A stretch of DNA of 37,601 bases from an uncultured Holophagales bacterium (GCA_964575465.1 CAZNSS010000001.1:1-37601); one strand, 5' to 3'. Counted from the stretch's first letter, positions 3,001-33,463 are shown. Notes: generated by a model from the sequence alone, not told the origin. Numbers and translations: made by a program.

Positions 3001-6000
3001 CGACGCCACGACCGACTGGAGGTGCGCTTCGGAGCCGATGTCGACGAAGCCCGTCACGTCCGCCACGGGAGGAGAGTCGCCGCGCCGCCCGAAGCGGGCG
3101 CCCGAGGTCGGCCACGTCAGGGTCACGCGAGGGGCCTGGCTGTCGCGCGCGACCACGACGCGAGACTCGCCCGCTCGTCCAGCCCGGTCGACGCCCCTCG
3201 CGACGAGGACGTTCGGCCCCTCGGTGAGAGCGACGCCGGGAACCGTGAACGCCGTCCCGGCGCGCGCCGCGGCGTCGACCTTCACTCCGTTGAAGTAGAG
3301 ATCGGCCGCGACGTCGGAGAGGGTTCCGGACGCGGGGGTCCGAGCCGTCGCGACGAGGGCGCCCGCAACCGGGGAGGAGATCGAGATCTGAGGCCCCTCG
3401 TCCGAGAGACGCGTGATGCGAACCCAGGTCGCCGCCGGAGACCCCGCGGCAGCCTCGCACGCGAGCTCGAGGGCGTTCTCGCCGACGACGGGAAGGGGCA
3501 CGTCGCCCGCGGCGAAGGTGCCGTCCGCGGTGGCAGCGACGTACTCCTGCATCCCACCGCCCGCCTGCGGAACGCGGACGACGACTCGGCGCGACGTCCC
3601 GCTCTTCCCGACGATCGTGACCTTCCCGTCGGGAGTCGTCGAGCCGTCCGCCGGGCGGATGTCCACGAGGGAGCACCCTCCACCACCGACGACGAAGCTG
3701 CGGCTCGCGCGCGTCTCGTTCCCTGCCGTGTCGACCGCCACGACGGAGAGGACCCAGCCGCCTGCCTCCGGAATCGAGACCTCCGTCGACGGCGACGACG
3801 CCGATACCGAGGCCCCGTTCAGGAGGATCCGCGGAGCAGGAGCCGCGCCTCCGGCATCCGACACGGCGACCGTGACGGTGACGGGCCCCGGGAATGACGC
3901 GCCGTCGGCGAGAGGATGCCCCGCGGCGGAGAAGGAGACGGACGGGGCCGTCGAGTCGGCGACGACGGAGACACTCGCGGAGCCGGTGCGTCCGTGAGCG
4001 TCGTTCGCGGTGACGGTGAGGGCATTCGGACCGTCGTCGAGCGGAACGTCGAGAACTCGGAACGCACCCGTCGCGTCGATCGCCGCGCTGAGCGCGCCTG
4101 CGCGGACGAGGCCGTCGACCGTCGCGTCCGCTCCGCCGACGACCGCGCCCACGAGGTCGATCTTCCTCCGGTTCGTCCGCGCCCCCTCGGCCGGCGAGAT
4201 GAGGACGACCTTCGGTCCCCCCGACCGGACGACGACCTGGACGGCGGCCGACGCGGTGCGCCCGAGCGCGTCGACGGCGACGGCGACGAGCTCGTTCGGA
4301 CCGTCGGGCTCGAGTGGGAGGCCGGGGAGGCTCCAGGTCGCCCCCGAGACGACCGCCGCGCGGCCGTTGACCTTCACCGCGGTCGCGCCCGAGGCGCGGG
4401 CGATCGAGACCGCTCCCGCGACGTCGGCCGTCGGCCCCGGCAGGGTTGCTCCGTCGGGAGGGGAGGTGATCGAGACGCTCGGCCCCGAAGCCGTATCGAT
4501 CGAGAACGACGCGTGCGCCCTGGCTTCGCGCCCCGCCACGTCGAGAACCCTCGCCTCCACGGCGTGTGCACCGGCCCCGGAGATGGGTGTACCGAGGACG
4601 TACGCTGCGCCGTCGACCGTTACTGTCAGGGTTGCCGCACCCGTTCCCGTAAGGGGCTCGCTCGTTCGGATCTCCGGCGTAACGGCCGAGAAGAAGGTCC
4701 TGCCAGTACCGAGCGGGAGATCGCCGAGGAGGATCTCGACCACGGGCCCGGTGGTCTTCACCGTGAAGGAACGCATGACCGTCGCCCGGTTCCCGGCCCT
4801 GTCGACGAGCTCGACGGAGACGGAGTTCTCCCCTTCTTGCCACGGGAACGGCACGAACGAGAAGGAGACGGCATCGGTTCCCGGCGTGACGACGGCGTCT
4901 CGGCCTCCCACGCGAACCGCGCGGACGTCGGGAGAAGCCGTCCCTGCGAACGTCGTGACCGGGTCCTTGAGGAGCGCGCCGGCCCCGGGCGTCGTCGAGA
5001 TGAGGGTCGGAGGCGTCGTGTCGATCGCGAACGAGGCGTGGACGACCGCCTCGTGCGCCGCGCAGTCGCGGGTGCGCGCGACGAGGAGGTGCGTGCCCTC
5101 AGCGGCGATGGGCGTCGCCTCGACGTACGGGTCGCCGTCGAGGGTCAGCATGACGGGAGGCGGCGCGGCGGCCCCGTCACGGATCGACGCCCGCGCCGAG
5201 AGCGCGCGGTTCAGCAGGGCGGGGGACGAGCCCTGAGGCGGCGTCGCTCCGGCTCCCGCGCCCGGGAACGGGGCGCCGTCGAGCGTCAGCGCGAGCTCCG
5301 GGGTCGAGGCGTCGACCCGGAGGGTTGCGAGGGCGCGTGACGAGTGCCCGAGAGAGTCCATCGCCGAAACGAGGAGGGTGGCCCTCCCGTCCGCCGTCTC
5401 CGGGATCGGGAACGAAGCCGCGAAGGTTCCTGATGCGTCCACGGTGGCGGGCAGCGTCGTGGCGTTACCCGACGGGAGCGTGAGCGTGACGGACACTGCC
5501 GCCCCCTCGGGAGCGCCCGCCACTCTCGGGTGGGCGTCGGCGACACGGCCGGAGACAGTGACGGAGGTGCCCGCCGCGAGGCAGGCCCCCGAGGCCGGCG
5601 CCGTGACCGAGAGGACGGGCGGGAGCGTGTCGAGGACGACAGGATGCGTCCAGGTCGTCTCGTTCCCGGCCGTGTCTCGCGCGAGGAGCGGGAGGAGGTT
5701 CGTCCCCTCGACGAGAGGCACGGTCGCGGTGAAGGCCCCGCCCGGGCCAAGGACCACCGGGACACCGTAGAGCGTCAGCGAAATGGCGTCGCCGGCCGTT
5801 CCCGAGACGACGACGGGAGATGCCGCGACGAGGGAGCCGGCCGGCGGCGCCACGACGACGATCGCGGGACCCTGCGTGTCGAGGGTGAAACGGCGCGTCA
5901 GCGTGAGCTGCTGCGGAGGGGTGCCCGCGTCGGCCGCCACGACGGAGAGAACGTGCTCGCCATTTGCGGAGATCGACGTTCCCGAGCTCCACGCGGCGCC

Positions 6001-7014
6001 GTCGAGCGTCGCCGTGACGACGACGGGCGCACGACCGCCCGTCGTCGCGACCACGGGCGTGACGGCCCGACTGAATACGGCGCCGTCGACGAGAGGCTGG
6101 CCCGACTCCGTCACGGAGAGACCGAGGGGATCGGTTGGGTTCGTCACGACGGCGTCGCGAGTCAACCAGGCGCGCCCGTTCATCGTGAATCGCCCGCCGT
6201 AGGCACCTCCGGTGAGAACGCTTCCACCGTCGATGGTGATCGAGGCGGTGGGGCTTCCGGCGTAGACGAAGCCCTTCAGCGTCGACGAACCGTTCAGAGT
6301 CACGGCGGGACCGCTCGTGAAGAGACGCAGGAGCGCCGGGTTCCCCGCTCCGTTCAGCGAGGACGTGCCGTTGACGATGACCGTTCCGGTGGAGAGGATC
6401 CGGACTTCGCCGGTCACGCTGACCGATGAGCCGCCGTTGATCGCCACGTTCCGGAGGTAGTAGGCCCCGGCGGGCAGCGCGAGAGTCTCGTTGCCGCCGA
6501 GCGTCAGGTCGGGCGGCGAAGATCCCGAGAGAGGGTTCCGCCCCGTGCTCGTCCTCGGGATCCGCGCATTGTCGTTCGACGCCGCGAGCGTCTGGGCGAG
6601 GGGGGTGAGGTTCAGCGGTGCGCACGGCCAGGGAGAAGAGAGACTCCCCTTCGTTCCCGTGACGCGCGAGAGGCCCGTCGCCGTGACCTTCTTTCCCGGC
6701 CCAGCCGTCCCGTTGCCGCGAATCGTGCTGCTGCCGTTGAGGGTGATGGCGCCGTTCGCGACGACGTGCCCCTCGCCGCCCGTCCCCGACGAGGTCACCG
6801 TGCCGCCGCCGTTGATCGTCACGTCGTCGCACGAGAAGACGGCCTGGGTGAGGAACTCGGGCTTCAGCGCGAAGGGGTCGCTCTGGGCCGAAGCGCGAGA
6901 GGGCGCGAGAAGGAGGATCGCCGCACCGGCGAAAGCCCGGGCTGCGGTCCTCAGTCCGTCGAACGACGAAGGGCAGCTTGAGCGGCTCCGGGACGACGGG
7001 TCGGATCGCCTCAA
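1..7014 (-). CDS. Giant exported multi-domain surface protein, N-terminal 2338 codons (C-terminus lies beyond the left edge)
   Basis: Not in the ORF track because it has no stop inside the window. Manual translation of the minus frame (plus-strand triplets starting at positions = 1 mod 3) ran from 7014 to 1 without a stop. In the lines re-checked triplet by triplet there was no TTA/CTA/TCA, and the first base of those triplets (codon position 3) is almost always G/C. All listed minus ORFs in 1-7000 are in the other two frames. The product starts MRRSDPSSRSRSSCPSSFDGLRTAARAFAGAAILLLAPSRASA|QS (Sec-type signal peptide). It continues with a G/N/T-rich beta-helix-like region, 12 or more tandem Ig-like domains with D-T-x-P-P-x-[VIL] junctions, SbsA-type Ig domains and a CarboxypepD_reg-like domain. 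The start is tentative: TTG 7014-7012 has GAGG 6 nt upstream and overlaps the upstream stop as TTGA. GTG 7056 is an alternative. Confidence 0.85.
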   Translation of the reverse strand, partial: MRRSDPSSRSRSSCPSSFDGLRTAARAFAGAAILLLAPSRASAQSDPFALKPEFLTQAVFSCDDVTINGGGTVTSSGTGGEGHVVANGAITLNGSSTIRGNGTAGPGKKVTATGLSRVTGTKGSLSSPWPCAPLNLTPLAQTLAASNDNARIPRTSTGRNPLSGSSPPDLTLGGNETLALPAGAYYLRNVAINGGSSVSVTGEVRILSTGTVIVNGTSSLNGAGNPALLRLFTSGPAVTLNGSSTLKGFVYAGSPTASITIDGGSVLTGGAYGGRFTMNGRAWLTRDAVVTNPTDPLGLSVTESGQPLVDGAVFSRAVTPVVATTGGRAPVVVTATLDGAAWSSGTSISANGEHVLSVVAADAGTPPQQLTLTRRFTLDTQGPAIVVVAPPAGSLVAASPVVVSGTAGDAISLTLYGVPVVLGPGGAFTATVPLVEGTNLLPLLARDTAGNETTWTHPVVLDTLPPVLSVTAPASGACLAAGTSVTVSGRVADAHPRVAGAPEGAAVSVTLTLPSGNATTLPATVDASGTFAASFPIPETADGRATLLVSAMDSLGHSSRALATLRVDASTPELALTLDGAPFPGAGAGATPPQGSSPALLNRALSARASIRDGAAAPPPVMLTLDGDPYVEATPIAAEGTHLLVARTRDCAAHEAVVHASFAIDTTPPTLISTTPGAGALLKDPVTTFAGTASPDVRAVRVGGRDAVVTPGTDAVSFSFVPFPWQEGENSVSVELVDRAGNRATVMRSFTVKTTGPVVEILLGDLPLGTGRTFFSAVTPEIRTSEPLTGTGAATLTVTVDGAAYVLGTPISGAGAHAVEARVLDVAGREARAHASFSIDTASGPSVSITSPPDGATLPGPTADVAGAVSIARASGATAVKVNGRAAVVSGATWSLPGLPLEPDGPNELVAVAVDALGRTASAAVQVVVRSGGPKVVLISPAEGARTNRRKIDLVGAVVGGADATVDGLVRAGALSAAIDATGAFRVLDVPLDDGPNALTVTANDAHGRTGSASVSVVADSTAPSVSFSAAGHPLADGASFPGPVTVTVAVSDAGGAAPAPRILLNGASVSASSPSTEVSIPEAGGWVLSVVAVDTAGNETRASRSFVVGGGGCSLVDIRPADGSTTPDGKVTIVGKSGTSRRVVVRVPQAGGGMQEYVAATADGTFAAGDVPLPVVGENALELACEAAAGSPAATWVRITRLSDEGPQISISSPVAGALVATARTPASGTLSDVAADLYFNGVKVDAAARAGTAFTVPGVALTEGPNVLVARGVDRAGRAGESRVVVARDSQAPRVTLTWPTSGARFGRRGDSPPVADVTGFVDIGSEAHLQSVVASSIAGSGSTVGSSPAIVDPTGAFRAEGLPLGAASGTLRIRVTATDAAGLSTTVESEVVVDAGGPALRLDAPSDLVRLTNSSAPSIPIAGETWATEGAAVSVNGISLDPATLTWDAPASDGRRHVSFSTSAAAPTQDGTVGLIVRVEDLSGRAASVRRLVVRDTTAPEVVEVVPVSGSTGTDPNGILLVLFSEELSKPSLVAPGGFVVTRDGLGEPIVGTFSIAGSAVAFVPGAGLTPGASYRVSLGTGLTDVAGNALATPFESSFTVAPAVTGVSPVLEPPPPAVVCASGLELRGTAPAGATLRATDGAVSVGATADASGRFLLSLPLVGNGYHDVSIRVLGRDGTSSPGVHALVRKDCSAPFVERAELDRTSGRLTVLFSEPMSSSTLSLSAAAGDGASLLLSLESDPTAAPRPGAVSLEADGKALRVDLPTATDAWWRDEAVRLTLRAPAADERGNVVAAPFVTTFFPGAGPGDLSGGFLSGEAYDDATGRPLDGVETRLYLSSAVLPGAVGSPDVPGAVSTTDVRGRYGFFGDVVAGRYALHLARDGYTQAVRRLPLAPGSGAVPFDVRLTPLATAASSRLDPTTGGTFGGPATSGLLLEAAPNAFVVPPSGSLAVRLTPVSAQALPELLPLGWSALAAADVRLESDGANPAPLPQSALFAPAAVHLTLPIPARTPGAVPLVAVRHDFASGRWLTLGPVERRAGSGDADVARIALASPGAVAIVLADVDTAIAPPSLAPGEGQPLTASNLPSPVPPLGATLALDPPVVSPAGRTTARVVARSADGAAKWPSGLAVQAYLDEKLVLSSGGELYEAPFAVDLVLAHEPISPTEVGAASRATVGALSFSVSPSPKASEVVLESGWENVRLYPFPESLERGSVLGGLGGTVTSPDGVELTLPEGALAESVAVEAKLLTPAELSGLTPVAGYRLVAAVRVSFSGRALARAATLSVPLPSDAPDAPAAESRLLLAQLVPSAPDGRGAFARLTARASRLAGPRAL
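2205..6150 (-). repeat. Tandem array of about 12-13 Ig-like domains (last one SbsA/Big_5-like) in the left giant protein
   Basis: Recurrent domain junctions occur every 90-100 aa. Examples are DTQGPAIVVVAPPAGS, DTLPPVLSVTAPASGA, DTTPPTLISTTPGAGA, DTASGPSVSITSPPDGA, GGPKVVLISPAEGA, DSTAPSVSFSAAG, DEGPQISISSPVAGA, DSQAPRVTLTWPTSGA and DTTAPEVVEVVPVSGS. The last unit reads VVPVSGSTGTDPNGILLVLFSEELSKPSL...GLTDVAGNALATPFESSFTV, the SbsA-type Ig signature. Confidence 0.65.
6150..6880 (-). other. N-terminal G/N/T-rich beta-helix-like region of the left giant protein
   Basis: Translated segments include VTINGGGTVTSSGTGGEGHVVANGAITLNGSSTIRGNGTAGPG, RNVAINGGSSVSVTGEVRILSTGTVIVNGTSSLNGAGNP and TLNGSSTLKGFVYAGSPTASITIDGGSVLTGGAYGG. 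The periodic x-[IV]-x-G/N rungs are typical of parallel beta-helices. I cannot assign a family name. Confidence 0.45.
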
Positions 7015-7871
7015 CGCCGGCCTCGCTGGCGCAGCGCCGCTTCGTCCTCGGCCCACGAGACGACGAGCTCGAGGGGACTCGGGATGCGCCGGAGACCTTC
7101 GGGCACCTTCACGAGGTCCGGGGAAAGCGACACAACCGGCGCTGCCTTCGTCACGACCGTCTCGAGGACGGGCCCGTCGTCGCGCGACCCTGGAGTCCGG
7201 TTCACGATCCGGCGCGTCCTCACGGCGAGCGCCCCGCCCTCCATCTTCCGAACTGCCTCGAGGAGGTCGGCCGGTCCCACCGCGTCGTCCGTCGTTCCGA
7301 GGACGGTCCTCTCGAAATCGGCGATCGCGGCGATCGCCTCCGGCGACAGCCGTGGCCCGCTCTCGTCCAGCCAGACGTCGAGAGACGGCCCGCCCTCCAC
7401 CGAGGCTCGGAGACGCTTCCCCGGAGCTGTCGCCGCGGACAGGGCACCGCGCGACACGGGTGCTGGCACCTCAGTGACCTCCTCGACGCGGATCGGAAGA
7501 CGTCCGCTCACGGCCTGCGCCCGCCTCTTCGACGCCTCGCCGGTCGATTCCGCCTCCCCGAGCCTCCGGCGAAGCTCCGCGAACCTGCCGAACGACAGCG
7601 ACCAGTACGTCCCCTCCTTCGGCCTCACTTCCGTCACCTCGCGCCGCGCGAGGTCGACGATCGTCCGGCTCCCGTCGGACCGCTCCGAGACGAGCAGGCT
7701 CCCGCCGTAGGTGTCGCGCACGGTCTCGCCCGCGACGGGCGCGCCGACGCTGCCGTCGACGGCGTGGTGCTCGACGACGAAGGGAACGGGGAACGGCTCG
7801 CGAGCCCGGACCGGGAGCGACCAGGCGGACGCGACGACGACGAGGACGGAAGGCAGGCGTCGCAGGTTCAT
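7011..7871 (-). CDS. Exported 286-aa protein of unknown function, translationally coupled between the two giant genes
   Basis: This is the internal ATG (7871-7869) of track ORF 7011..8717. The product begins MNLRRLPSVLVVVASAWSLPVRA|REPF, a clear Sec signal peptide. Its ATG overlaps the TGA of the 5785-aa gene (ATGA), and its TGA (7013-7011) overlaps the TTG of the next gene. I recognise no domain. The stretch RTIVDLARREVTEVRPKEGTYWSLSFGRFAEL is faintly reminiscent of LolA-fold/DUF4412-type periplasmic proteins (weak). Confidence 0.8.
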   Translation of the reverse strand: MNLRRLPSVLVVVASAWSLPVRAREPFPVPFVVEHHAVDGSVGAPVAGETVRDTYGGSLLVSERSDGSRTIVDLARREVTEVRPKEGTYWSLSFGRFAELRRRLGEAESTGEASKRRAQAVSGRLPIRVEEVTEVPAPVSRGALSAATAPGKRLRASVEGGPSLDVWLDESGPRLSPEAIAAIADFERTVLGTTDDAVGPADLLEAVRKMEGGALAVRTRRIVNRTPGSRDDGPVLETVVTKAAPVVSLSPDLVKVPEGLRRIPSPLELVVSWAEDEAALRQRGRR

Positions 7872-10800
7872 GGGAGTCGAATTGCGAACGGTCGTTGAGC
7901 GGACGGAGCCGCGGGGGCGGGAGGGGTGAACACGGGATGCGTCGGCCGTACTCTGGGGCCGGTACGGGCTCCGGAGCGACCTGTGGAGACGGACGTCGGC
8001 CGAGCGACCGCAGGCGTCGTCGCGCGGAGTCCCGACGAGGACGCGACGATGAGTCGCCAGAGGGTGGACGTCCACTGACCAACGGAATCGAAGACGCCCA
8101 CGCCGAGGTAGTACTCGCCCGTCGTCGGTTCTGCCGGAACGCCGAAGGAGAGGGTCCTGTCGAAGGTCGTGGCGCCGCCCTCGACAGGGACCTCGATCCG
8201 GGTCCCGTCGATCCACTCGAGCCAGAGGACGATCCGGTCGAGACCGATGTCGTCCCGCGCCTGGACCGTCACCGGAATCGTCGCCCCCGCCGACACGTTC
8301 CGGGTCGGAATGGAGGCCGACACGGTCGGGGCCGCGTCGGTCGGCGGAACGCTCGCGTTCGGAGCGGCGATCGCAGCAGAGGATCCGACGTCGAGCCTCC
8401 CCTCGAGCAGGTCGGTCGTCGCGAGCCGGGACCGCCCGCCGACGGTGACCGAGTCGAACGACTCGACCCCGACGTAGGTGTCGCCCGGGAGGAGCTGACC
8501 GTCGGCATCCGCGTCGAGCGTGAGGATCCGCGCCGCCACCTCGACGGCGTCGACGAGGAACCGCCCGACGAGCTCCCCGCCGCGACGGACCTCGACGGGT
8601 CGCCCTTCGACACCCGGCCGCCATTGCGACCCTGCCGCCTGAATGCTCCTGCCGGCCACGCTCGAGACGACACCCGAGCCGATCGCCACCAGCTCGGTCG
8701 GGCTCGGCTGCTCGCACCAGCCGCTGTCGAGGATCAGGTGGCCGTCACGATCATCGGGCGATGACACGAAGATCGTCCCGGCGGCCCCGGACGAGTACCA
8801 CTGCGGGCCGCTGGCCGCGGCCAGACCAGGGACGCGGTCCTGAAGCGGGCCTCGGAACGCGATTCGGCCGCCACCGGCCGAGCCTCCCTGTCCGGCCCGG
8901 ATCCAGGGGGTGCCGCCGTGCGCGAAGACGATTCCGGTGCCTCCGATCGATCCCGCCTCGACCGAGACGCTGCCTCCCGCACCGACTCCCCCGCCCTCGC
9001 CGCTCCCGCCCTCGACGTCGATCTCGCCGTCGAGAACGAACTGCCCGCCGACGCGGAGCTGAACAACGCCGCCGCCGGACCCACCGGGCCTGTCGGCGCC
9101 GTCGGCGCCGCCGCCGGCGCCGGGAAGGGAGGGCCTGCGGAGGTTCCCGTAGGGCGGCCCCGGTACGGCCCCCGATCCTGCTTCTCCGCGACCGCCGTAG
9201 CTCCCGCCGGCGCCGGCCTCGGATCCGGGAAGGCCCGGCAGAGTCCGGCCGACCGGCGTGATGTTCGGTCCCTGATAGCCACCGAGGTAGCCACCCCCGC
9301 TCGCGCCCACGCTGCCTCGGAACGCGATGTAGGCGTCTCCCGAGACCTCCAGATCGATCTCGCACGGTTCGTCCAGACCGGGATCGCAGTGGACGAAGGA
9401 GTTCGTGAGGACGACGAGACTCGCGAAACGGTGATGACCGCGGATGACCACCTCGCCGCCGCCGACGACGACGTTCCGGTCGTCGTGGGATACGTCGGTC
9501 GCATCGACGACCGCCCCGGCCTCGAGGAGATCGCCCGTGACGATCCGGACGCTCGACGATGCCGATCCGACGCGGCCGAGGTCGTCCGTCGCTTCGACGC
9601 GGAAACCGACGGCGCTCCCTGCCGTCGCGTCCGTCGGGATCGTGTACTCCGCGTACCGCTCCCCGCCGGGCAGGGTCGCGAACGGCGTCGCTTCGCCCTC
9701 GCGGAAGAAGCGGAGCTGGGAGATCTCGCGCGTGTGCTCCACCTCCGCGGCGAGCGCGACTGTGCCCCCGGCAATCGCCAGCGCGCCGGCGGAGGGCGAC
9801 GCGAGCCGGACGCCCGGCGTCCCGGCCGGAAGGAGCGTGAAGGTCCGCTCAGACCACGACGAGTTCCCCGCGGCGTCGACGGCCTCGACGCGGAAGACGA
9901 GCGGCCGAGGCTCCGTCGTCGCCGGCAGGGGCTCGATTCCGGCCTCGAACGTTCCCTGCCGGGCCGGAACCGCGAGCGAGGCGAACGGGGTCCCGTCGAG
10001 AAGGAACCGCACCTCGACGATCCGGCCGGCGTCACGAACATCGGCGGCGAAGATGCCACCCCTCCCGGAGACGAGGGCCGACTGCGGCGACCTCACGCGC
10101 GAGATGGCCGGCGGCTTCCCGTCGACGACGGAGACGCTCTTCGGGCCCGCCACGGCCATCGCTCCGTTCGAGTCGTCCACTTCGACGGAGACCACGGCCC
10201 CTCCGAGCGCGTCCGGCGGGACCGGAATTCGGATCGTCCGGGTGGTATCGAGCACCTCGCTCGTGGGACTCCCGAGGGTGACGAGACGGGCGTACTCGAA
10301 GGCTCCGGTGATCGACAGCCGCGCCGATCTGAGGCCGAGGTCGTCCGATGCCGCGAGCGAGAGCTCGAGCGTCCCACCGCTCGAGGCCGTGGCCGGCGCG
10401 GAGAGGGACGCCACGGGCGCGTGGTCCACTCCGATCTGCAGGGGCAGGGTCGCGAGACCGTAGAGACCCACCTCGTCGGTGACGCGGACGACGGCCGTCG
10501 CCGCGCCGAGGGCGCCCGCGGGAATCGTGACCGGAGAGAAGGCCCCGGCGTACCGTTTCGGCGAGCCCGCGATGGCGATCGTCTCGCTGAACGTCATCGC
10601 GCCCGAGACCTCCAGCGTCGCGGTCGCCGCTCCTCGGACCGCGACGGCCTCGAGCGACACGAGGAACGACGATCCGGATTCGTATGGACCCGCCGGCTCG
10701 AGGATCAGGCCGACGCGGGGGGAGGCACTCGTCAGTACGAAGACCGGGGCCGGGTCGGCGGCCCCCTCGAGGCCCTGATCGTCTACCGCCGTCGCCGTGA

Positions 10801-13800
10801 GCGGGAGGACCTGGTCTTCCGCCACCGCCGGAACGGGAACGCTGACCGAGCGGACCCCGACGGACGGATTCGGGACGCTCGACCGGCTCGCCCCGAGCGC
10901 GACGTCGAGCCGGCTCACCGGACCGTCGTCGTTCACCGAGACCGAGGCCGGAAGGGTCTCTCCCGCGACGACGATGGTGTCACCGGACGGCGACGGATCG
11001 AGGAGAGTGACAGTGGGCGGGCCGTTCTGCGGAGCCACGACCTCACGGACGATCGCAACGGCAGGGCCGCTCCGTCCCGCTCCGTCGATCGCGGTGACGT
11101 CGATCGTCATCGCGCCGCGGGCCCCCCTCGGGATGACGAAGGACGGGAAGGAGCCGGAGAAGGGCCGGGCCGTAGCGAGTGCGGAGAGGCCGGTCGGGGC
11201 CGCTGACGGGAACGGGCCGGTCGCGGTCGCCTCCCAGTTCATCGCTCCCGTCACCCGGAGCTGCACCCGCGCGTTCGTGGGATCGCGGAAGAGCCCGGTG
11301 AATCCGACGACGACGGACGCCCCGGCGCCCACCGGCGAAGGAACGTTCACGGAAGAGGTCACTCGCGGGTTCGAGTCCGCGAGGAGCGTCATGGAGACCG
11401 GGGCCGAGGAGACCGTCGCGCCCGACGCGTCCTCCACCGTGGCGAGCAGGCTCCCCGCCTCGTCGGACGAGACCGCCGGGACCGGGAGCGCGACGGAGAA
11501 GCTCGGCCCCGCGAGTCCGGTGAACTCAGAAGTCGCCGCACCAAGAGCGAGCGTCAACTTCCGGAGCGGCCGCGAGTCGGAGAGCTGCAGCCTCACGGGT
11601 TCGCTCGTCCCTCCGATCAACACCGCTCCCGAAGCCGGTTCCACGATGGACACCGTCATCGGCGGCGGGGCAAGGACCGTGATCGGGATCGACGTCGAGG
11701 CGCTCTGCCCGGTGCTGTCGAGGACCGTCGCTTCGAGGAGGAGCGACGTCGTCGACGACACCCAGGGGGCCGTCACGACGCCGGAGGTCGCCGTCGGGCC
11801 CGGAATGTCGGTCGTCGAGCCTCCCAGCCGGAGCGTGACCCGCACGACCGGGTGGTCGTCCGCGGCCCCGTACGTGACCGCGATCGAGGAGCCGGATGCG
11901 AAGGACGCGCCAGGAGCGGGAGAGGTGATCGCGATTCTCGGCGCCGCGTCGCGGATCGGGTCCGCGCTCTGCAGCATCGCTCCCCCCGCCACCTCGACCG
12001 AATCGAACTGGTAGACCCCCTGCCAGAGATCTCCCGCCTGAAGGGCGATCGTCTCGGCCCCGTTCGGCTCCAGCATCACCGTCCGGCCCGCGATCGTCTC
12101 GATCCGCCATGTCCCGAGCAGCGCGCCGCCCCGCGACACCTCGACCCGGTGACCCACGAAGAAGGCCGGGATCGCCGTGCCGCGGTCCGTCACCAGCGTC
12201 ACCCCGCTCGTTCCGACCTGCGCCGTCCCGCTCCCGAGGCTCGGCAGGACCGTCGCCTGTCCCGTCGTCCCGAGGTTATTCACCCGCAGCGTGCCGTATG
12301 TCGCCCCAGGGCCCTTCTCGAAGACCGTGCCCGCTCCGCCGTTCTCGGCGGCCACGCCTCCTCCGCCGCCGCCCCGTGCGTTCATCCTCGAGAGTGCCGT
12401 TCCGGTTGCCCCGGCGTACTCGAGCGCGACGGCTCCGCCTCCGCCCCGGGCCCCCGGTCCGCCCCCGCCGGCCTCGATGAGCCCGTCCCCCGTGATCGAG
12501 GACGTCGTGATCCAGATCGACCCGCCCGCCCCGGCCTGCCACCCGTAGGCACTCCCGTTCGAGATGATCGACGCCGTGGTGCCACCGAAGGCGAGCGTTC
12601 CGGACCGGATTCTCACGACGCCGCCGCCGCTCGCGGAGCCGTTCGCTCCCCTTCCTCCGCCACCGGCCTCCTTCGGCGACCCGACGCTTCCGTAGGTCGT
12701 TCCGCGGCTCCCCCACTCGTAGGCACCACCCGTCCCGAGGTGACTCCCCCCTCCGGCCAGCGGGAGCACCGCTCCGGGGTAGGCCGCGTCGGCCGGGTAA
12801 CCACGTCCCGTCACGTCGATCGAACCGCCCTCCTCGATGGTCAGCGTGCCGCTCACCTTCAGGTCGAGATCGCGGATTCCCGCCGCTGTCGAGCTCGGGT
12901 GACTCAGCGTCGCTCCCGACTTCACCGTCAGGTCCGTCGCCGTGATCGCGGAAACCTGGACCCGTCCCGCGACAGAGACCGTCTCTGCGTTCAGCGGTGA
13001 GAGACTCTCGGTCACGCCCCCGCTCGCCGTCGGTCCAGCCAGCCCGAGGGACGGAGTCCGTATCGGGTCGAGGCTCTGAAGACGTGAGGCCCCTGCGACC
13101 TCGACGGCGTCGAATCGATAGGCGCCCTGCCAGAGGTCTCCTGCCTGAAGCGCGATAGGCCCCGCCCCGCCGGGCTCGAGCGTGACCGTCCGGTCCGAGA
13201 TCGTCGCAATTCGCCACGTCCCGAGCAGGATCCCGCCCCGCGTGACTTCGACCTCGTGACCCTTGAAGAACGCCGGGATCGCGATCCCGCGGTCCGTCAC
13301 CAGCGTCGCGCCGCTCGACCCGGGCTGCGCCGTCCCGCTCCCGAGGCTCGGCAGGACCGTCGCCTGCCCCGTCGTCCCGCCGTTGTCTATTCGCAGCACC
13401 CCATACGCCGTCCCCGGTCCTCTCAGCAGGACTGTGCCGGCGCCACCGTTGTCGCCCGCGAGTCCGCCACCGCCGCCTTTCGCGTTCGCCCTCGTCAGAG
13501 CTGTCCCCGTCGCCGTGCCGTACTCGATCGCGACCGCTCCGCCACCGCCCCTCTCGACCGTTCCGCCGCTCGAGGCCTCGATCAGCCCATTGCCCTGGAT
13601 CGACGAGGCCGTGATCCAGATCGATCCGCCGCCCCCCGCCTGCCATCCGTCCACGCTCCCGTTCGCGAGGATCGACGCCGTTGGTCCCCCGAGGGAGAGC
13701 GTTCCCGCCTGGATCCTCACGACGCCGCCGCCGCTGCTGGAACCGTTCGCGCCCAGGCCTCCGCCCCCCGCCTCCTGCGGCTCCTTCACGCTTCCGAACG

Positions 13801-16800
13801 TCGACCCTCGCACGCCTCCTCCGTACGCCCCACCGGTCCCGACGTGGCTTCCCCCTCCGCCCATCGGGGCAACCTCCCCCGGGTACGTTCCTCCCTCGGG
13901 ATAGCCGCGTCCCGTCACGTCGATCGACCCACCGCACTCGACGAACAGAGGTCCGGTCACCGTCAGGGTGAGCCTTCGGGCGCCACCGGGGGAGTGAGCG
14001 ACGGACGCGCCACGGAGAACGAGGAGGCCGGCAAACGTCCTCGGCTCGTCGAGGACGAGCGTGCCGGAGGCGAGGAAGGCCGTCCGGGTCTCCAGGGCCT
14101 GCCAGTCATTCGGTCCCGCGGCCGAGACCGGGACCGCCGGAACGACCGTGACTTCCGTCTCCGAGTCGGCGGAGACGTTCCCCCCGAAGTCCCAGGCACG
14201 AACGCGAAGACGAACGGGCGTCGGCTCCGCAACCTCGGGGAGGACGATCCCCGGCGTGAGGGTCTCGAAGGTCCGAGTCGATCCGGACGACGCCTCAACG
14301 ACTGCGGTCGGGGTCGCGTCTCCGTCCCGGAAGACCTCGACTCGCTGAACTCCCTGGTCGTCGGACGCGGCGGCCTGGACCCTGAAGCTCGAGTAGCCGG
14401 AGGGAAGAAGGGCTCCGGGCGACGGACAGTCGATGGACACCGACGGCGGGACCACGTCCGCCCTCGGGCTGACGGAGATCGACCTCGAAGCAGTCCTCGC
14501 GTTGCCCGCCAGGTCCATCGCGGTCACCGTGATGGTGAACGTCGAGGCCGTCGCTGCGGGAGGAGCGATCCAGACGAGGGTTGCAGGAGAGGTCTCGGAT
14601 TCCGCCGTCCGCCCGCCGACCTCGATCCGGATCCGCGAGACCTGCACGTCGTCCGTGGCGCGGGCGGTGATGGCGACGACGTCGCCAGCGACGTACAAGT
14701 CCCCGGGGCGCATCGGCGACAGGTCGACGGCCGTGATGACGGGCGGCGTCACGTCGCCGACGACGTTCCACGTCGCCGTTCTTTCGGAGATTCGTCCGGC
14801 GCGGTCGATCGTCCGCACCGCGTAGGTGACGGGCCCGGGCGGCTGGTTGGCGGGGACCACGAGGTGAATCGGCACGGGAGAGGAGGTGACCTCGGTCGGC
14901 TCGACGAACGTTCGGGTCGACTTCGAGCCCGTGACGGACCACGTCTCCTCGACCTTCGAGATGCCGAGCGGATCGGTGATGCGGAAACGGACGTCGACCG
15001 CGCCGGCCTGCGCGACGGCCGAGCCGGGGGCGGGAACCGTGCCGGCGAAATCGACGGCAGGCAGCTCGCCAAGGAGGACGCGAGAGTCGGCGGCGATCGC
15101 GAGGGCCGCCCTGTCGTTCAGGATGCCGCCGACCTCGAGCTCGTCGCCGGAGGAGACGCGAACTGCCCCCGTCGCCTCGAAGGCTGCGAAGCGGAGCCTT
15201 GCCTTCGCCGTGACCGCTCCGCCAGCCGCAAGTGCGGCAGCGGTGGCGTCGAGATCTCCGGCCGGTGCGTCGACCGTGAGAACGAGAACCTGGTCCGGAG
15301 AACCGACGGAGCCCGACACACGTACTTCCGTCGCGACCGGGAAGACGGCTGTCGTCGTGCTCCCGTCTCCAGCCGGCAACGTCGTGACGACGACGCTCTC
15401 TCCCTCGATCGATCCCGCCGCGTCCGCGGCACGGACGGTCAGGGTGCGGGAGGCGCTGTCGATCGCCGTGACGATCGCCGTTCCGAGGCCGGGGAGCGGC
15501 GTCACCGCCGGCGGGTACGTCGAGGCCGGGTTCGAGATCCGCAGGGTCCCCCGGTCGACGGGGACGCCGCCTGCGCCGAGCCGTTCGAGGAAGACGGTTC
15601 CGGCCCCCGCGAGCGGCGTCGGGTTCGGCTCGCCGTATCGATAGAAGGGAGAGGGCGCTCCTTCGGCGCGAACCGATATCCCCGGGCTCTGCGGCTCGCC
15701 CCACGAGACGGCCACACGGCCGCCACCGCCCCCGGGGCGGGAGGTGCCGTAGACCGTGAAGGAGCCGTTCGCGTGAACGCTGCCACGTCCCTCGATGCGC
15801 CCCGCGCGCAGCCGCACCGAGCCTCCCGCCGCGCCGACCGAGCTGCCGCCCGGGACCGGCCCCCCGTCCGCCGCGAGGTCTCCGAAGAGCCGAACGATCG
15901 CAGAAGAGGCATCGATACGGACGACGCCTCCCCCACTCGCTCCGGCGCGCCCGGCTCCGCCGCCCGGCAGGCGCGGTTCGCGCACACTGCCGTAGACGCT
16001 TCCCGGGGCGCTGAGGAGAGTCACCCAGTCGCCCTCGACCGGATGCCCCCTGCCACCGTGAGAGCCCGCGCTTCCAGGGGCTGACGCCCGTTCTCCCGGC
16101 AGGACGACCGGGTCGCGAGAGCCGTCTCCCCCGAGGAGGCCGTGTCCCGTGACGTCGATCGCGGCCCCGTGCGCGATCGCGAGCGTTCCGCCGATCGCGA
16201 GCTCGAGCGGGTAGAACGGGACGAGCGAGCCGCGGGTGGTGACCTCGGGTGATGTGAGGATCGTCCGGCGGACGGTCACCGTCGACTCGGCGCCAGCCGA
16301 CCAGGTACCGCCGGAATAGAGGTGCAGGCCCTCGAACGAGCGTTCGCCGCCGGCGGCCGGTGGATAGAGGCTGAGGGTCGACCCGTCGAGGAGGAAGACC
16401 GGAAGGGCCTCGGCGCCCTCGGGCATCGGGACGTCCGAGCCGGAGTCGATGGAGGTCGTCGCCGACTCGTAGACGTGCCGCGCCGGCACCGCGACGAGGG
16501 TCGCGGTCCGGACCATGCGGTTCGCGCCGGCGTCGACGACCTCGACTTCGAACGGCAGCGACGTCCCCGCCGGCACGCCGTTCGGCACTCGCCAGGCCGC
16601 CTCGTAGACCCACTCGCCGGCGGACCCCGAGAGAAGCACGGCGGGAATCGAGTCGGCAGCGATGCTCCCGGTCGCATCGACCGGGCCGCGCACCCGAACG
16701 TTCACGTAGGAACCCGGAATCGTGTGGCCTCCGGCGTCGACGTCGCTGTCCGTGATACGGACCCTGAGGAGGAGATCGACCCCGCTCTTTCCGGCGTCGA

Positions 16801-19800
16801 CGGAGATGTAGCCGGCGGGCCAGAGCGCCCCCTCGAACGGCGAGAGCCACTCCGCCACCGGGCGGTTCGGGTCGCTGCCGGGGGCCGCCTCGAGCGTCGT
16901 CGTCCTGGTCGCCTGGTTGCCGCCGTGATCGTCTGCCGTCGCCGTGACGCCGATCGTGACCGGGACCGTCAGGCTGCCCGGGACCGTGACGGCGGCGGTC
17001 CGGAAGACGTCCGTCGTCGCGACCCGGACGGCGTCGAGGGCCGCGGGGAAGACACCCCCCGCCGTCGCGATCGCCACGGAACGGATCGCCGTCTCGGCGT
17101 CTCGGGCACGTACCTCGAGGACGAACGAGTCACCGATGACGAACGAGGTCGCCGTCGAGCCGTCTGGCCGGCGGGCGACGAGATCCGAGAGGACCGGGGT
17201 CCCAGCGTCGTCGGCCACCGCGAAGGTCGCTTCGCGAACGCCTGTCGCGCCCTTCCCATCCGTGACTCGCGCGACGACGGACAGCGTCGACCCTTCGGCT
17301 TCGGTGAGCGGGACGGTGAAGGAGAGGACCTGAGGAGCGAGCGCGGACCAGCCTCCGGCGGGGCGCTCGAGAGTTCGCGCCGGCGCGGAAGCGAGGATGG
17401 TCCCCTGCGGCCCACCGCGCCGCAGCTCCGCCAAGAGCGTGAGGCGGGCGTCGTCGGCGTCGGCAATGCCTGCCGCTGTCGCCGACACGGTGGACCCCGC
17501 GTAGAAGACGCCCACGACGGGACCGCTCGCGGATGCCGTGACTCCGGCGATCGTCGGAGGGGCGTTCGGCAGGACCCGCATCTCGAGCCTCGCGACACCG
17601 CTCGCGTTGCCGCTCGTGTCGAACGCCCTGGCCCAGACCGGGAACGGCCGGGGAGCCACGCCGTCGCCCGTGTAGGCCGCGACGAAACCGTAGCGGAACG
17701 GCGCGACTCTCACGATGGCGCTCGGCACCGGCTCCGGCTGGGTCGGCTCCGCGGCGCTCGCGAAGGAGAACTCGACCCTGTCGAGGTCCCCGAATGCGCT
17801 TTCCGGCGTGACGTCGTCGAGGTTGCCGAACGACGGCGAGAGCTCGTAGCGCGCGGCGGCCACGAGGTCACCCGTGGGGGCGTTTGGCGGCAGGTCGATC
17901 GAAAGGACCGGCGCGTTCCGGTCGTAGATCCGGTATTCGCCAACCCACTCCGGCATCGGGTTCCCGGCCACGTCGGTGAGCCCCGTGACCACGAGCCGGC
18001 GCCGGAGGGAATCGTCCGTGAACGTCACCCCCTGAGGCTGCGCGACGAGGATTGAGTAGCCCCCGCGAGTCAGCGACGTCGCGACCGGGAAGTCGGCCCA
18101 CGTCCCGGCGCCATTCCGCCACTCGAAACGGACCGCGGCCTCGAGCTGGGCCGATGTCAGGGCGAGGATCTCCCCGAAATCGACGCGGACCTGGGCCTCG
18201 GGGTCGACGGGCCGGGCCAGTGATGGAACGGTCGCGACGACGCGCGGGCCGTCGGTGTCCGAGGTGGTGAAGCTCGAACCGACGTCACCCGAATCGGTGA
18301 GCGAACGCCCCTCGCGGTCGCGGACTCCGCCGGACCCGCCCACCATGGCGAGCATGTAGGTCGTGGAGTTCTCGTACCTCGGGCTCGGCGTGAACCTCAC
18401 CACCTGCCGGCCCGCGCCGTCGAGCGATGACGACCAGGTCCCCGTGGCCTGCGCGCTCGAGAACGAGAGCCGGAAGGTGCTCGACGTCGGTCCGGACGGC
18501 AGGACGGCCGTGGCCAGCGGCTCGGAGAAGACGATCTCCACGGGGGCCGTCCTCGAGACCAGAGACTGGCCGTTCGGAGGGGTGACGGAGACGATGCGCG
18601 GACGCGAGCCGTCGAGGACCACGGGCGGGAGCGCGTAGTCCGTTCCGTGGGCGCTCCCGAGCGTCCCTGCCGCGGTCGCCACCCGTTCTCCGTCGAGGCT
18701 CCGGGCCTCGAGGGTGTACGGCCCTGCGGCGAGGCCAGAGAAGCGGAAAGCGCCGTCGCCCGACGTGACGAGGAGCTGCTCGTCTCCCGTCGAGGGGCGG
18801 ATGCGGACGAAGATTCCGCCGGCCGGCGGCAGACTCGCGGGGTCGCCGCTCCAGGCGTCGCCCCCGGGCGCCTCGTGGACCGTTCCGTGAGCCGAGACGA
18901 CGGGAGAGAGGGTGAGGGTGACGTCGAGGACCTCGTCGTCCCACCGGAGAGTCCGCGAGATCGACGCTCCGAGCGGCGTACCCGGCACGGAGGCCGAGAC
19001 CGATACCTGGCCTTCCTCGACTGCGGTGAAAACGGCACGCCCGGCGGCGTCTGCCGCGCCCTCCCAGGTCCCGTTCGGGGCGTGCACGCGCACGTTGGCG
19101 CCGCCGGCCGCCACCCCGCCGGCGTCGCGCACCGCGACCCTTACGGTTCCGCGGGCGAGGAGGGTGATTCGGTACGGGTCCGCGCTCGCCCCCGTGCCCG
19201 AGGCGAGCGCGCTCGACGTGACGAACGCACGGCGCTGCTCGCCGCTCGACTCGAGCGCCCGCACCCAGAAGCTCCTCGACGCCAGGACGTCCCGGAACCG
19301 GTAGGCGTGGCCCGGGTACGGAACGTCCGGCGCGAGGCGGCTCGTGAGCGGTATCGGCTCCCCCGAGTAGATGTCGACGTGGCGTCCGTACGAGATCGCG
19401 AAGACTCCATCGCCCCTGACGGGATCGGGATCGACCTCCACGAGACCGCGCGACTGCTCCTTGCTGAAGAGACGGACCCAGACGTCGCGGATCGGTTCGA
19501 GGACGAGGGCCACTTGCGCCTCGGGGGCGGTCGGCGTCAGGACCACGTTCTCGCCGGCCTGCCGGTCGCTTCCCTCGACACCGGCCGAAAGAGCGTACGT
19601 GGCGACGGGAAGACCGTCGAAGGCGAAGGTGCCGCTCGAGCCCGGCTCGCGGCTCGTGCTCGCGAGGGCGGTTACGCCGGCTCCCCAGAGCCTCCCGTTC
19701 ACCGTCCCCTCGAGGCGGACCGTTCCGCCGCCGACAGGGACCGTCCTGGTGGCATCGTCGAACAGGACACCGGAGACTCGCCCTCTCTGGTCGAGGAGGA

Positions 19801-22800
19801 CGACGACCTCCAGGTCCTGTCCCGCGTGGTCGAGGTGAATTTCGCCGAGTCGCCCGCCTCTGCCCGACGGGGCGTGGAAGACGTGGGCCGCGTAGGTCCC
19901 GAGCGACAGTGCCTGGAATGAAGCACGCCCGTCGGCCCCGGCGACGGTCGCCTCGCCATTCGAGAGGAAGACCTGTGCGTCGGGAACCGGAGCGCCGTTC
20001 TGCGGATCCCGAACGAGGACGGAGAGCGCCGCCACCTGCCCTGAAAGGACGAGGTCACCCACCTCGACGACATCGAAGTCGGCCTTCAGCTCCCCGGAGC
20101 GGCTCCCCAGCCGCGAAACCTGACCCGGGTCCCGCGCGACCACCGTGAACCTGCCGGCCGAGACGCCGCCCATCTCGAATCGCCCGTCACCGCCGGCCGT
20201 CAGGAAGGCGGGAGCCGCCGGGAACCGGCGGAAGGGGAAGTCGTTCTCCTGGAGAGCGACCTGTGCGCCCGACAGCGGGAGGAAGACCCCCGGCGCCGTC
20301 TCCTCGGCGACCCGGCCGCGGACGGTTCCCTGGGGCTTCAGGGAGACGACGAGATCGAGAAGCTGCCCGTGTCCGGTGATCCGGCCGTACGTCCGCCCCG
20401 TCCTCTGGATCGCGCCACGAAAGCCGCTCGCGGTGACGGCGACGTTCCCCGGCGGAACGAGCTCGAACCGGAAGGCGCCGAGTTCGTCCGTTCGCTGCCG
20501 CTGCGGAATGTAGCCCGTCGCTTCGAGGTCGACGTCGATGCCCGGGACGGGGGTGATCCCGTCGACGTCGACGACCAATCCCGCTACCGTCGAGGATCCC
20601 TCGAAGAGGAGATCGACCTCCTTCACCTGGCCAGCGAAGTCGATGGCCCCTCGGAACGATGCCGTTCCGTGGAAGGGGTTCGCTGCGGTGACGCTCAGCT
20701 CTCCGACCGGCAGCACCAGGGCCAGGCGGCCGTCGTCGTCGGTCGTCGTCTCGATTCCCGTGGACTTCTGCCGGATGACGAGCTCCTGAGGGCTGAACCA
20801 CGTCGGCCGGTAGACGAGGGGGCTCCTCACGCCCGCGGTCGTCGTCCTCGTTCTGACGCGCAAGGTGCCGGCACCCCGTAGCCGGACGGTCACAAAGGCG
20901 CGGTGGCCGCCGAAGAGGACCTCGGTCCCCGCCTCGCCAATCCAGCCGATCGCCCGGGGTTCGAGGCCAGCTCCGACGTGAGCAGCGACCGTGTACGCCC
21001 GCGCGGGGACGCCCTCGAACGAGAACGTGCCGTCGGCCCCCGTCGTCGTCTCGCCGATCGGGACGAGCGTGACCGTGACGCCGGGTGCCGGCCTCCCGAG
21101 CGGGTCGAGGACGACGCCGTCGATCGCACCTGGGGTCGCGCCGTCGAGGACGATCGTCGCGGCGGCGACCGGATCGGGCGACGCGTCCGTGACGGAAACG
21201 ACGGTCGTCCCCTCTGCCCGGCGAACCGAGTCGATCGCGTGGACCCGGTACGGGGCTTCTCCCACCCCCTGCGCCGGAACGCCGTCGATGCGGTAGTCGC
21301 CCGCGGCATCGGTCACCGCGAAGCTCCCCGGCCCCTCGACGAACACCGTCGCTCCCGAGGCCGGAACGTCGGCCTGTGCGAGCGGGTCGTGGAAGAGAAC
21401 CTTCCCCGCGACGGACCTCGGGCTCGACGCGGCGAGGATCAGGGTGGCGTCGGCCGAGCCCTCCGCGGCGAGGTCGACGTCGGCGATCGCCGCCGTCCTC
21501 GACCTCGTGAAATCGGCGGCCTGAAGTGTCACGCGCCCTGCAGGAACCCCTGTGAACCGGAACGTGCCAGCCGTGCCCGTCACCGCCTCGCCGTACGGCG
21601 CGCCGGCCGAGTAGACGGCAACGCGTGCACCGGCAACGGGCTCCGCCTGCGGCCCTGAGGCCGTCTCGCTGCGGAAGAGGACCCTCCCGGAGACCGTCCC
21701 GATACGAGGCGGCCGGGATCGCTCGAGTCGGAGCGTCGTCTCCACCTTCGCGCCCGGTCCGCCGAGGGCGACCGTTGCGGAAGCCGATCGACCCTCCGCA
21801 TCGCGGGCCGTCACGGTGATTGGACCGACGGGGAGGCCGTCCACCCGAAAACCGCCGTCGGCCCCGGCCTTCGCGGTGCGGACCTCGGAGAAGAGCGTGC
21901 TGGCCGCCGTCACTGCTGCCCCGATGGCGGCGCCGCCGTCGTCGTAGACCGCACGGCCTGTCAGAGTCCCGCGTCCGAGGAACGAGAGGTTGATCCGCGC
22001 CAGGCGCGACTGAAGGCGGATGATGGAAGAGACCTCCTCGATCTCCAGGGGAGCCAGCGGGTCCGGCCCGGGAGGGAGGACCGCCTGGATTCGGAAGCCC
22101 GATTGCACCGTCCCCTTCTCCGGCGGCCTCGGGACGGCCAGTACGGGCTCCTCGACGAACGGGAAGAAGAATGAGCCGTCGGCTCCGGTCGTCCGCTCGG
22201 CGACGAGGTCGTGCACGACTCGCGAATCCAGGCCCGAAGCGTCCGGGACGATCCTCTCCCGGACGAGACGAAGCGTCGCTCCTGCGACGGCCTGCCCCGT
22301 CCCCGCGAGCACCTTCCCCTCGACGAGGCCTCCGACGTGTCCGCTCTCGATCCGGATGTCCGGCACGGGGGACGCGAGCGCGTTGCCGTACCGGTCGCGA
22401 AGCACGCCGGCCGCGATCCGGTGGAGATTCGTGACGACCGGCTGCCCTTCGCGGGTCGCGATCACGGCCGAGACGGGTTGCGCGAAGCGGACTGTCAGGA
22501 CGCGCTCGCTCGACGGCTGCAGGAGGGCCGAGGCGGCGGTGAACGTCGCCGTTCGCTCGAGGGTCTCTCCCGAAGCCGTCGAGTCGAGCCCGCGGAAACG
22601 CGTCTCGACCTCGTATCGGTCCTCCTCCTCGGCATCCGCCTTCGCGGGCGGGCGATTGAAGAGGTACCAGACGCCGGAACCGTAGGGATCGAGGACGAAG
22701 TCCTGTCGCGCCCCGATCAGGCGGAAGGGTGGCAACTCGACCGCCCGGACGATGGCGGCGGGCGCCTCGGAGACCGGCATTCCCGTCGCGAGATGGACGA

Positions 22801-31479: not shown

Positions 31480-31561
31480 TCAACCCCCTTGGAAGGCACC
31501 CCAATATTCAGAACCTCGCGGCCCGAGAGCGGGCCACGCGGCGAAAGAGTCAACCGGGGCC

Positions 31562-31590
31562 ATTATAGGCCAGAGGGGCCGTATCGGCAC
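31562..31590 (-). promoter_or_regulatory. Candidate promoter of the 1817-aa gene (perfect TATAAT, weak -35)
   Basis: The minus strand reads GTGCCG-N17-TATAAT, with TATAAT at 31567-31562, about 80 nt upstream of ATG 31479 and downstream of the preceding terminator. The -35 matches only 3 of 6 positions. Confidence 0.35.
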
Positions 31591-31667
31591 ACTCCACCAG
31601 GATTCGGGCCCCGCATCGGAAGGTAGTGACGGGGACCACGAAATCTCACCGGTTCCGCGAGGACGCC

Positions 31668-31704
31668 AGAGAAAGAAAAAGAGCGGGCGGCTTTCGCCGC
31701 CCGC
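31668..31704 (-). terminator. Rho-independent terminator of the 503-aa gene
   Basis: The minus strand reads GCGGGCGGC-GAAA-GCCGCCCGC, a 9-bp GC stem (31704-31683), followed by TCTTTTTCTTTCTCT. It lies 27 nt after the TAA stop. Confidence 0.85.
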
Positions 31705-31730
31705 CCAGGGTTGATCTACCGAAGGATCGC

Positions 31731-33434: not shown

Positions 33435-33463
33435 AGGTTAGGGGCGCTATTCGGAAAAGTCAA
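33435..33463 (-). promoter_or_regulatory. Sigma70-like promoter of the 503-aa gene
   Basis: The minus strand reads TTGACT (33463-33458), N17, TAACCT (33440-33435). It sits in a locally AT-richer intergenic region. The predicted leader is about 185 nt. Confidence 0.5.

Follow-up and report, generated by a model that had tools for sequence, protein, structure and literature searches.

β-Solenoid segments are well known in adhesins, and giant bacterial surface proteins remain largely unannotated beyond their immunoglobulin (Ig)-like repeats. The most closely comparable parts of described giant fibrillar and RTX-type adhesins are their stalk or extender domains, which comprise BIg, CarboxypepD_reg and Big_7 repeats, are typified by SiiE and region II of MpAFP, and have the presumed task of making the fibre project and of stiffening it (PMC9210967; PMC4083281; PMC6272769). 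Here we describe a glycine-rich module that occurs four times (M1 to M4) in a protein of 5785 amino acids (aa) encoded by a 37,601-nucleotide (nt) stretch of DNA from an uncultured Holophagales bacterium (GCA_964575465.1, CAZNSS010000001.1:1-37601), the whole of which was analysed and is called the window below. We are highly confident that the module is a genuine domain family made of a solenoid and a barrel, and give a probability of roughly 0.55 to its serving as a stiff rod or spacer segment of a giant extracellular fibre.

A six-frame scan of the whole window with a hidden Markov model (HMM) of the module found exactly four copies, all within the 5785-aa open reading frame (ORF), whose GC content by codon position (0.71/0.58/0.86) is typical of a coding frame; the G+C content of the window is 72%. 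An external-only HMM, made from 44 foreign homologues and none of the window's own modules, scored M1 to M4 at 127, 333, 343 and 184 bits, against at most 3.3 bits for 200 shuffles of the module segments. M2 and M3 are 69% identical in protein (self-BLAST E 3e-147) and 73% identical in DNA, and M1 and M4 are 29-33% identical to the other modules (E 1e-23 to 1e-35). The first-pass annotation, made by a model from the sequence, had claimed four paralogous segments bearing an ordered set of motifs, and regular-expression searches, self-BLAST and the HMM scores all bear this out. Four of the motifs, GS[HY]xGxG, [YF]G[SN][VL]..P...G[GA]G, SGGGVV[RQ][IL] and GGS[IV]x[IVL]....IxGxG, are common to all four modules; two others listed there stand in three modules each, as IDVTGxG is replaced by SVGASGGG in M4, and the strict form of GGG[GR][VIA]A is likewise missing from one module. 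Most of the edges first proposed lie within ~20 nt of the HMM edges, the largest discrepancy being the upper edge of M2 (14157 as against 14077, or 80 nt). The giant ORF, the modules and the segments between them are as follows.

7868..25225, minus strand: giant ORF, 5785 aa
15119-16285, minus strand: M1, whole, aa 2981-3369 (six-frame HMM scan)
15500..16285, minus strand: M1 Gly-rich solenoid, aa 2981-3242 (self-BLAST, HMM)
15119..15499, minus strand: M1 C-terminal unit, divergent and with insertions, a probable barrel homologue, aa 3243-3369 (pairwise and four-way alignments)
14078..15118, minus strand: spacer between M1 and M2, aa 3370-3716 (Ig-like sequence pattern; Big_3_3 and OmpL47 matches only sub-threshold)
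13052-14077, minus strand: M2, whole, aa 3717-4058 (six-frame HMM scan)
13358..14077, minus strand: M2 solenoid, aa 3717-3956 (HMM, AlphaFold2, sequence rungs)
13052..13357, minus strand: M2 connector strands and six-stranded small β-barrel, aa 3957-4058 (AlphaFold2 strands 280-340, Foldseek)
12986..13051, minus strand: linker of 22 aa between M2 and M3, aa 4059-4080 (predicted ordered β, continuing into the M3 cap)
11942-12985, minus strand: M3, whole, aa 4081-4428 (six-frame HMM scan)
12251..12985, minus strand: M3 solenoid, aa 4081-4325 (self-BLAST, HMM, junction model)
11942..12250, minus strand: M3 connector and small β-barrel, aa 4326-4428 (HMM, junction model)
9476..11941, minus strand: Ig-like spacer between M3 and M4, aa 4429-5250 (Pfam Big_7)
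8396-9475, minus strand: M4, whole, aa 5251-5610 (six-frame HMM scan)
8696..9475, minus strand: M4 solenoid, aa 5251-5510 (self-BLAST, HMM)
8396..8695, minus strand: M4 connector and small β-barrel, aa 5511-5610 (alignment, HMM)

The C-terminal unit of M1 is not reached by the external-only HMM, which stops at aa 3284, and its homology to the barrels comes from the pairwise alignments. The proposal that the modules are separated by Ig-like spacers holds for M1-M2, where the Big_3_3 and OmpL47 matches are weak, and for M3-M4, with its four Big_7 domains, but not for M2 and M3, which abut across the ~22-aa linker. Apart from the module boundaries, the plus-strand GC skew (-0.195) and AT skew (-0.129) show a strong local dip at window positions 12001-14000, coinciding with M2 and M3, which is accounted for by the abundance of GGN glycine codons in the coding (minus) strand.

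The structure of a single module, M2, was predicted with AlphaFold2 from a 48-sequence alignment. The model has a mean predicted local distance difference test score (pLDDT) of 95.8, a predicted template-modelling score (pTM) of 0.93 and no segment below a pLDDT of 50, and is all-β and ordered, not disordered. Its secondary structure, assigned with DSSP, begins with short cap strands, followed by long strands at residues 40-51, 124-134, 157-167 and 186-194 and then by shorter ones. The long strands recur every ~30-33 residues, and the corresponding rung repeats, each opening with GGGx[VI]xI, can be read directly in the sequence, where they follow the N-terminal cap rungs and a Gly-rich excursion of 65 residues. 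The last ~100 residues of the model comprise three connector strands and a six-stranded unit, with the sequence landmarks VLPSLGSG...GHEVEV...GTWRI...GDLWQGAYRFD. These features agree with the description at first pass of a Gly-rich β-helix-like repeat followed by a small barrel, the matches to solved structures being weak. Read from the predicted model, the module is a parallel β-solenoid with no close solved relative.

The 65-residue excursion (aa 3770-3834, model residues 59-123, window ~13724-13918) is predicted with a pLDDT above 90 and displays almost no strand or helix by DSSP. It carries the motifs IDVTGRGY, GGSHxGxGG and [YF]GSxxxPxxxGGGG. In the model it could be a polyproline-II (PPII)-type glycine bundle embedded in the solenoid, an idea for Gly-rich sequence that is taken from published work (bioRxiv 10.1101/2023.11.25.568672). 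No Gly-rich PPII-bundle entry (snow-flea antifreeze protein, phage S16 gp38 or ALK GlyR) was present among the top Foldseek matches of the PDB.

A second model of 581 residues, the junction model, covers the C-terminal half of M2 with that module's barrel and continues through the linker and the whole of M3 (pTM 0.89, pLDDT 91.8). The inter-module segment is ordered in this model, with pLDDT values of 88-98 over residues 186-250, and this ordered linker together with the pTM argues for a fixed inter-module geometry and suggests that M2 and M3 would be stacked rigidly, head to tail. When the M2 model was compared with the PDB by Foldseek, the best matches for its last ~80 residues were small closed barrels, namely those at the N termini of F1/V-ATPase and that of a phage tail-tube domain, with no match at E<1e-3. 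For the 581-aa model, phage tailspike parallel β-helices were the only matches at E<1e-3, with capsular depolymerases, the pectate lyase PelI and GH110 at weaker E-values; the right-handed parallel β-helices as a group gave weak similarity (E 8e-5 to 0.3, TM-score 0.10-0.17, root-mean-square deviation (rmsd) ~19 Å). A search of BFVD returned a pectate-lyase-superfamily protein and Gly-rich viral proteins, again weakly, with TM-scores of at most 0.36.

The profile search proposed at first pass did find a family, and a large one. A HMMER scan of 1.84 billion cluster representatives (50% identity) recovered 14,663 representatives at E<=1e-3 and 6,005 at E<=1e-30, with top matches in proteins of 1,400-7,400 aa. 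Their named sources include Acidobacteriota, Planctomycetota, Verrucomicrobiota, Bdellovibrio, Ignavibacteriae, Armatimonadota, Patescibacteria, Microbulbifer and one eukaryotic transcriptome, and the members from these sources are all labelled 'hypothetical'. The 150 best relatives contain 3-12 copies per protein, which usually abut (one copy and the next are a median of -2 aa apart), and 436 of these copies consist of solenoid and barrel and 414 of the solenoid only. The dockerin, type IX secretion system (T9SS) sorting and I-set Ig domains that relatives also carry point to an extracellular location. The family consensus is mostly Gly and core Ile, Leu and Ala, along with P106 (94%), T224 (91%), T249 (90%), R190 (86%) and Y100 (81%), and alternate, outward-facing strand positions are variable. 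No conserved acidic (Asp/Glu) or catalytic-type set is present in the consensus, in which D58 (63%) and D240 (71%) stand out.

That this family is unnamed, as the first-pass annotation had surmised, holds for the libraries searched, namely Pfam-A (2025 copy), NCBIfam r20 and the PDB sequences. No Pfam-A or NCBIfam family covers the module in the window protein, in 48 aligned family members or in six giant relatives, a profile search of the PDB sequences gave nothing meaningful (best E 0.25), M2 had no tblastn match in plasmid or phage collections, and a literature search found no description of the domain. Four familiar kinds of Gly-rich protein had already been set aside at first pass, and motif counts and the Pfam scan concur in doing so. 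GGxGxD is entirely missing from the giant protein, which has no Pfam RTX match (PF00353); FxxN does not occur in the modules, GGA[ILV] occurs 0-2 times per module, as isolated strings in M1-M3, and there is no Pfam Pmp match (PF02415); GGAGGxG is lacking; and the longest in-phase Gxx run is 4-5, with no Pfam collagen match. RTX, Pmp, PE_PGRS and collagen are thus ruled out by their missing defining motifs and the lack of Pfam matches, and a collagen triple helix also by the β-strands that AlphaFold2 predicts instead.

The protein that bears the modules starts with a Sec-type signal peptide (aa ~27-48; ...LLLLLALGALVPAAGASA/QP), followed by an unannotated conserved N-terminal region of ~1000 aa, ten CarboxypepD_reg domains, Big_5 and M1, and thereafter, according to Pfam, by the Ig-like spacer, M2-M3, four Big_7 domains, M4, DUF4625 and a Pro-rich tail. 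The Big_7 matches are four stretches in the C-terminal half, the strongest at aa 4429-4491. Within the N-terminal region, aa 390-1050 (window 22076-24058) are more highly conserved among orthologues than any other part of the giant protein, and this stretch has no Pfam and no PDB match.

Orthologous giant genes, collinear with that of the window and 63-72% identical over 3,700-4,400 aa, are found in the closest genomes, which are Thermoanaerobaculia and Holophagales metagenome-assembled genomes. The central array, represented by M2 and M3 in the window, has one copy in the orthologue L001, two in L002 as in the window, four in L007 and L009 and six in L008. It thus expands and contracts from 1 to 6 copies, and in all five orthologues it is flanked by just one M1-like and one M4-like copy. 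Identity to L001 and L002, respectively, is 79% and 69% for aa 390-1050, 60% and 49% for the M4 solenoid, 50% and 43% for the M4 barrel and 50% and 41% for the C-terminal tail, and is 60-71% for M1-M3 (M3 aligned in L002 only). From these regional identities, the modules are not the best-conserved part of the giant protein and are no more conserved than the domains beside them. In a further Holophagales orthologue, L003 (JADKBZ010000003.1, positions 4748-10180), the modules are split over several reading frames, and its pieces therefore appear as separate short 'hypothetical proteins' (P0005, P0051); the split frames are probably frameshift errors in a long-read assembly, or possibly mark a pseudogene.

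These comparisons tell against the initial suggestion that the modules are the functional head of the protein. The central copies number from 1 to 6 in orthologues, relatives have abutting arrays of 3-12 copies, the N-terminal region is better conserved and the consensus contains no acidic set. On its conservation among orthologues, aa 390-1050 would be a better candidate for a functional head than the Gly-rich modules.

A structural role is favoured instead because copies usually abut, copy number varies, the conserved positions are Gly and core hydrophobics, and catalytic-type residues are lacking. In this reading, to which the rough probability of 0.55 applies, each module would be an autonomous pair of extracellular domains. 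The first would be a Gly-rich parallel β-solenoid of ~240-260 residues, comprising cap rungs, the ordered 65-residue excursion and three to four core rungs, each core rung having ~30-33 residues with a GGxGG corner and then a long strand of alternating inward hydrophobics. The second, a ~100-residue connector and six-stranded barrel, would close the solenoid and pack in a fixed manner on its end, as a C-terminal cap and connector that leads straight into the next module or domain. Joined head to tail, or with Ig-like domains in between, the modules may then form stiff rods within a Sec-exported surface or extracellular fibre and set its reach and mechanical rigidity, and their repeated surfaces, variable between lineages, may in addition make low-affinity, multivalent contacts to polymers or cells. 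Unlike family membership, copy number and its variation among orthologues, the predicted fold class, the predicted rigidity of the junction and the lack of conserved catalytic-type residues, the extracellular fibre context, the rod or spacer role and any binding are matters that we infer, the context from the signal peptide, from the Ig-like, CarboxypepD_reg and Big_7 domains around the modules, from the domains of relatives and from the neighbouring genes.

Several points weigh against this reading. The geometry of the solenoid, its handedness and the position of the barrel rest on DSSP strings, pTM and weak Foldseek matches (TM-score 0.15-0.36). The connector and barrel motifs of the acidobacterial subfamily (VLPSLGSG, LVTDR, IPAYFxGHWVEV, GTWRI and GDxWQGVYRFD) are strikingly conserved and, as conserved sequence, could belong to a binding site and not simply to a cap, and polar residues are conserved as well, namely R190 and the His/Tyr of GGS[HY]GG. 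Structural and binding roles are not mutually exclusive.

The same motifs lend some weight to an account in which the modules, their barrels or the Gly-rich excursions are the ligand-binding heads of an adhesin, specific for a polysaccharide or protein, with the number of copies giving avidity. β-Helices and small barrels often bind carbohydrates, and the excursion is well ordered and conserved, with His/Tyr, Tyr/Phe and Pro residues. Yet about half of the family copies have no barrel (414 as against 436 complete ones), copy number drifts among orthologues, conservation is lower in the modules than in the N-terminal region, and the outward-facing strand positions are the variable ones. We regard a dedicated binding head as possible, though unlikely.

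Improbable, in our estimation, is a catalytic right-handed β-helix that cleaves polysaccharides, which would make the giant protein a multi-enzyme degrader. Giant proteins with CASH β-helices have indeed been proposed as degraders (PMC12057145; bioRxiv 10.1101/2023.11.21.568195), and tailspike depolymerases, PelI and GH110 are the best PDB matches of the 581-aa model, alongside the BFVD match to a pectate-lyase-superfamily protein. However, these structural similarities amount to TM-scores of only 0.10-0.17 at an rmsd of ~19 Å, and no match to Beta_helix (PF13229), Pectate_lyase_3 or CASH/PbH1 was obtained even at E<=1 in the window protein, the 48 members and the 6 giant relatives. The conserved columns, moreover, are mostly Gly and hold no constellation of Asp, Glu and Lys, and up to 12 tandem copies of near-identical type would be atypical of an enzyme.

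A still smaller chance is given to the module being the same element as one in the N-terminal domain of Myxococcus AgmC, where it would act as a surface adhesin within machinery for gliding or surface motility. Of the named families, just one, the corresponding NCBIfam model NF047640 (gliding_AgmC_N), shows any similarity to the core rungs: its profile positions 233-409 match nine of the 48 members and the relatives P0201 and P0041 (E 3e-5 to 1e-3, 11-23 bits in relatives), at residues 1421-1584 and 182-334 of the latter two, respectively. Such scores nevertheless lie about ten-fold below the 275-bit cut-off of this 412-position model, neither M2 alone nor the whole protein (scanned in two halves) is matched, none of the genes of the window was recognised as an Agl/Glt gliding gene, and a literature search found no paper on AgmC. 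The remaining idea, that the module is a Gly-rich low-complexity or disordered linker, repetitive only in composition, has a negligible likelihood. Gly does make up 21-28% of the first 255 residues of the modules, but the shuffle control (<=3.3 as against 127-343 bits) and the AlphaFold2 model refute a compositional artefact, and conservation is position-specific across phyla.

Around the giant gene the window encodes further proteins, listed here with their coordinates.

7011..7871, minus strand: 286-aa secreted protein, downstream of the giant gene, with no Pfam or PDB match
1-7014, minus strand: second giant gene, running off the left end of the window (>2338 codons without a stop; codon-position GC 0.71/0.61/0.87)
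26026-37600, minus strand: upstream genes for a 1817-aa PKD-domain protein (GC content at third codon positions 0.94), a 505-aa protein without a family, an FG-GAP repeat protein and an ABC-2 membrane protein

The ATG of the 286-aa gene overlaps the TGA of the giant gene (ATGA, 7868-7871), which suggests translational coupling. At the corresponding position, L001, L002 and L003 encode a protein that is 66-69% identical to it and L008 one that is 36% identical, and in L001 the match begins at 14506, overlapping the stop of the giant gene at 14509. The 286-aa protein may serve the giant ones as a dedicated partner or chaperone. The second giant gene encodes a signal peptide, DUF7305, four Glucodextran_B domains, Big_13, Big_5 and Big_3_3, is syntenic in L001-L003 (64-70% identical) and contains no copy of the module. 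A TPR protein is encoded on the plus strand within 26026-37600. The neighbouring genes include those for giant secreted proteins of the PKD, FG-GAP and Ig-rich kinds, and large secreted proteins made of repeats are clustered at this locus.

No established concept is overturned by the module, and what is new lies in its details: the Gly-cornered rungs of ~30-33 residues, the Gly-rich excursion and the integral barrel, in a very abundant domain without a Pfam, NCBIfam or PDB match. Only tentatively can it be called the founding example of an unnamed superfamily (>14,000 50%-identity clusters in many bacterial phyla), with a distinct fold, a major but overlooked building block of the giant surface fibres of bacteria and possibly shared with AgmC; such a superfamily would combine a Gly-cornered β-solenoid with a Gly-rich insert, possibly of PPII type, and with an integral barrel that caps it, and would have no solved representative. 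The module offers a concrete target for a new family definition and a first structure, would improve the annotation of the proteomes of Acidobacteriota, Planctomycetota, Verrucomicrobiota and Bdellovibrionota, and may help to explain how rod segments other than Ig domains set the length and stiffness of extracellular fibres.

Among known systems, the right-handed parallel β-helix proteins resemble the module as all-β, extracellular solenoids of stacked rungs, and are the only solved structures that Foldseek returns for its solenoid part. The module differs from them in having no sequence-profile match to them and in the low TM-scores (0.10-0.17). Its rungs turn at GGxGG corners, are 21-28% Gly and have ~30-33 residues, in contrast to the ~22-25-residue rungs of pectin-lyase-fold helices, and unlike the proteins of that fold it has the 65-aa excursion, a C-terminal barrel and no conserved catalytic residues, and sits in monomeric tandem arrays within one chain. 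The RTX, Pmp, PE_PGRS and collagen proteins are likewise Gly-rich, repetitive and extracellular, but their defining motifs are missing from the module.

The likeness to the N-terminal domain of AgmC, a weak profile match over ~170 positions, possibly marks a distant homologue of the module, set against some 23 bits relative to the 275-bit cut-off, an unmatched window protein and no motility gene context. The G8 domain (PF10162) of β-helix proteins of the CEMIP/TMEM2/PKHD1 type has no Pfam match in the window protein. In four relatives (P0058, P0093, P0108 and P0111), a partial G8 match (profile ~2-65 of 124) lies directly N-terminal of the module, as a separate adjoining element and not the module itself. 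By its position in these sequences, half a G8 domain may act as a solenoid cap in distant relatives, which hints at a link to the eukaryotic G8/β-helix proteins.

It is the stalk or extender domains of giant adhesins, such as SiiE and region II of MpAFP, that offer the nearest parallel in arrangement. RTX-type adhesins differ in that the giant protein bears no RTX or type I secretion system (T1SS) signal and has a Sec signal peptide, and the module is a solenoid and barrel instead of the Ig sandwich of stalk Ig domains, ~3.5 times longer and without a Ca-binding motif. Like the stalk domains, however, it is repeated in tandem within a giant secreted protein, varies in copy number and is interleaved with Ig-like domains, and it would share with them the presumed role of projecting and stiffening the fibre.

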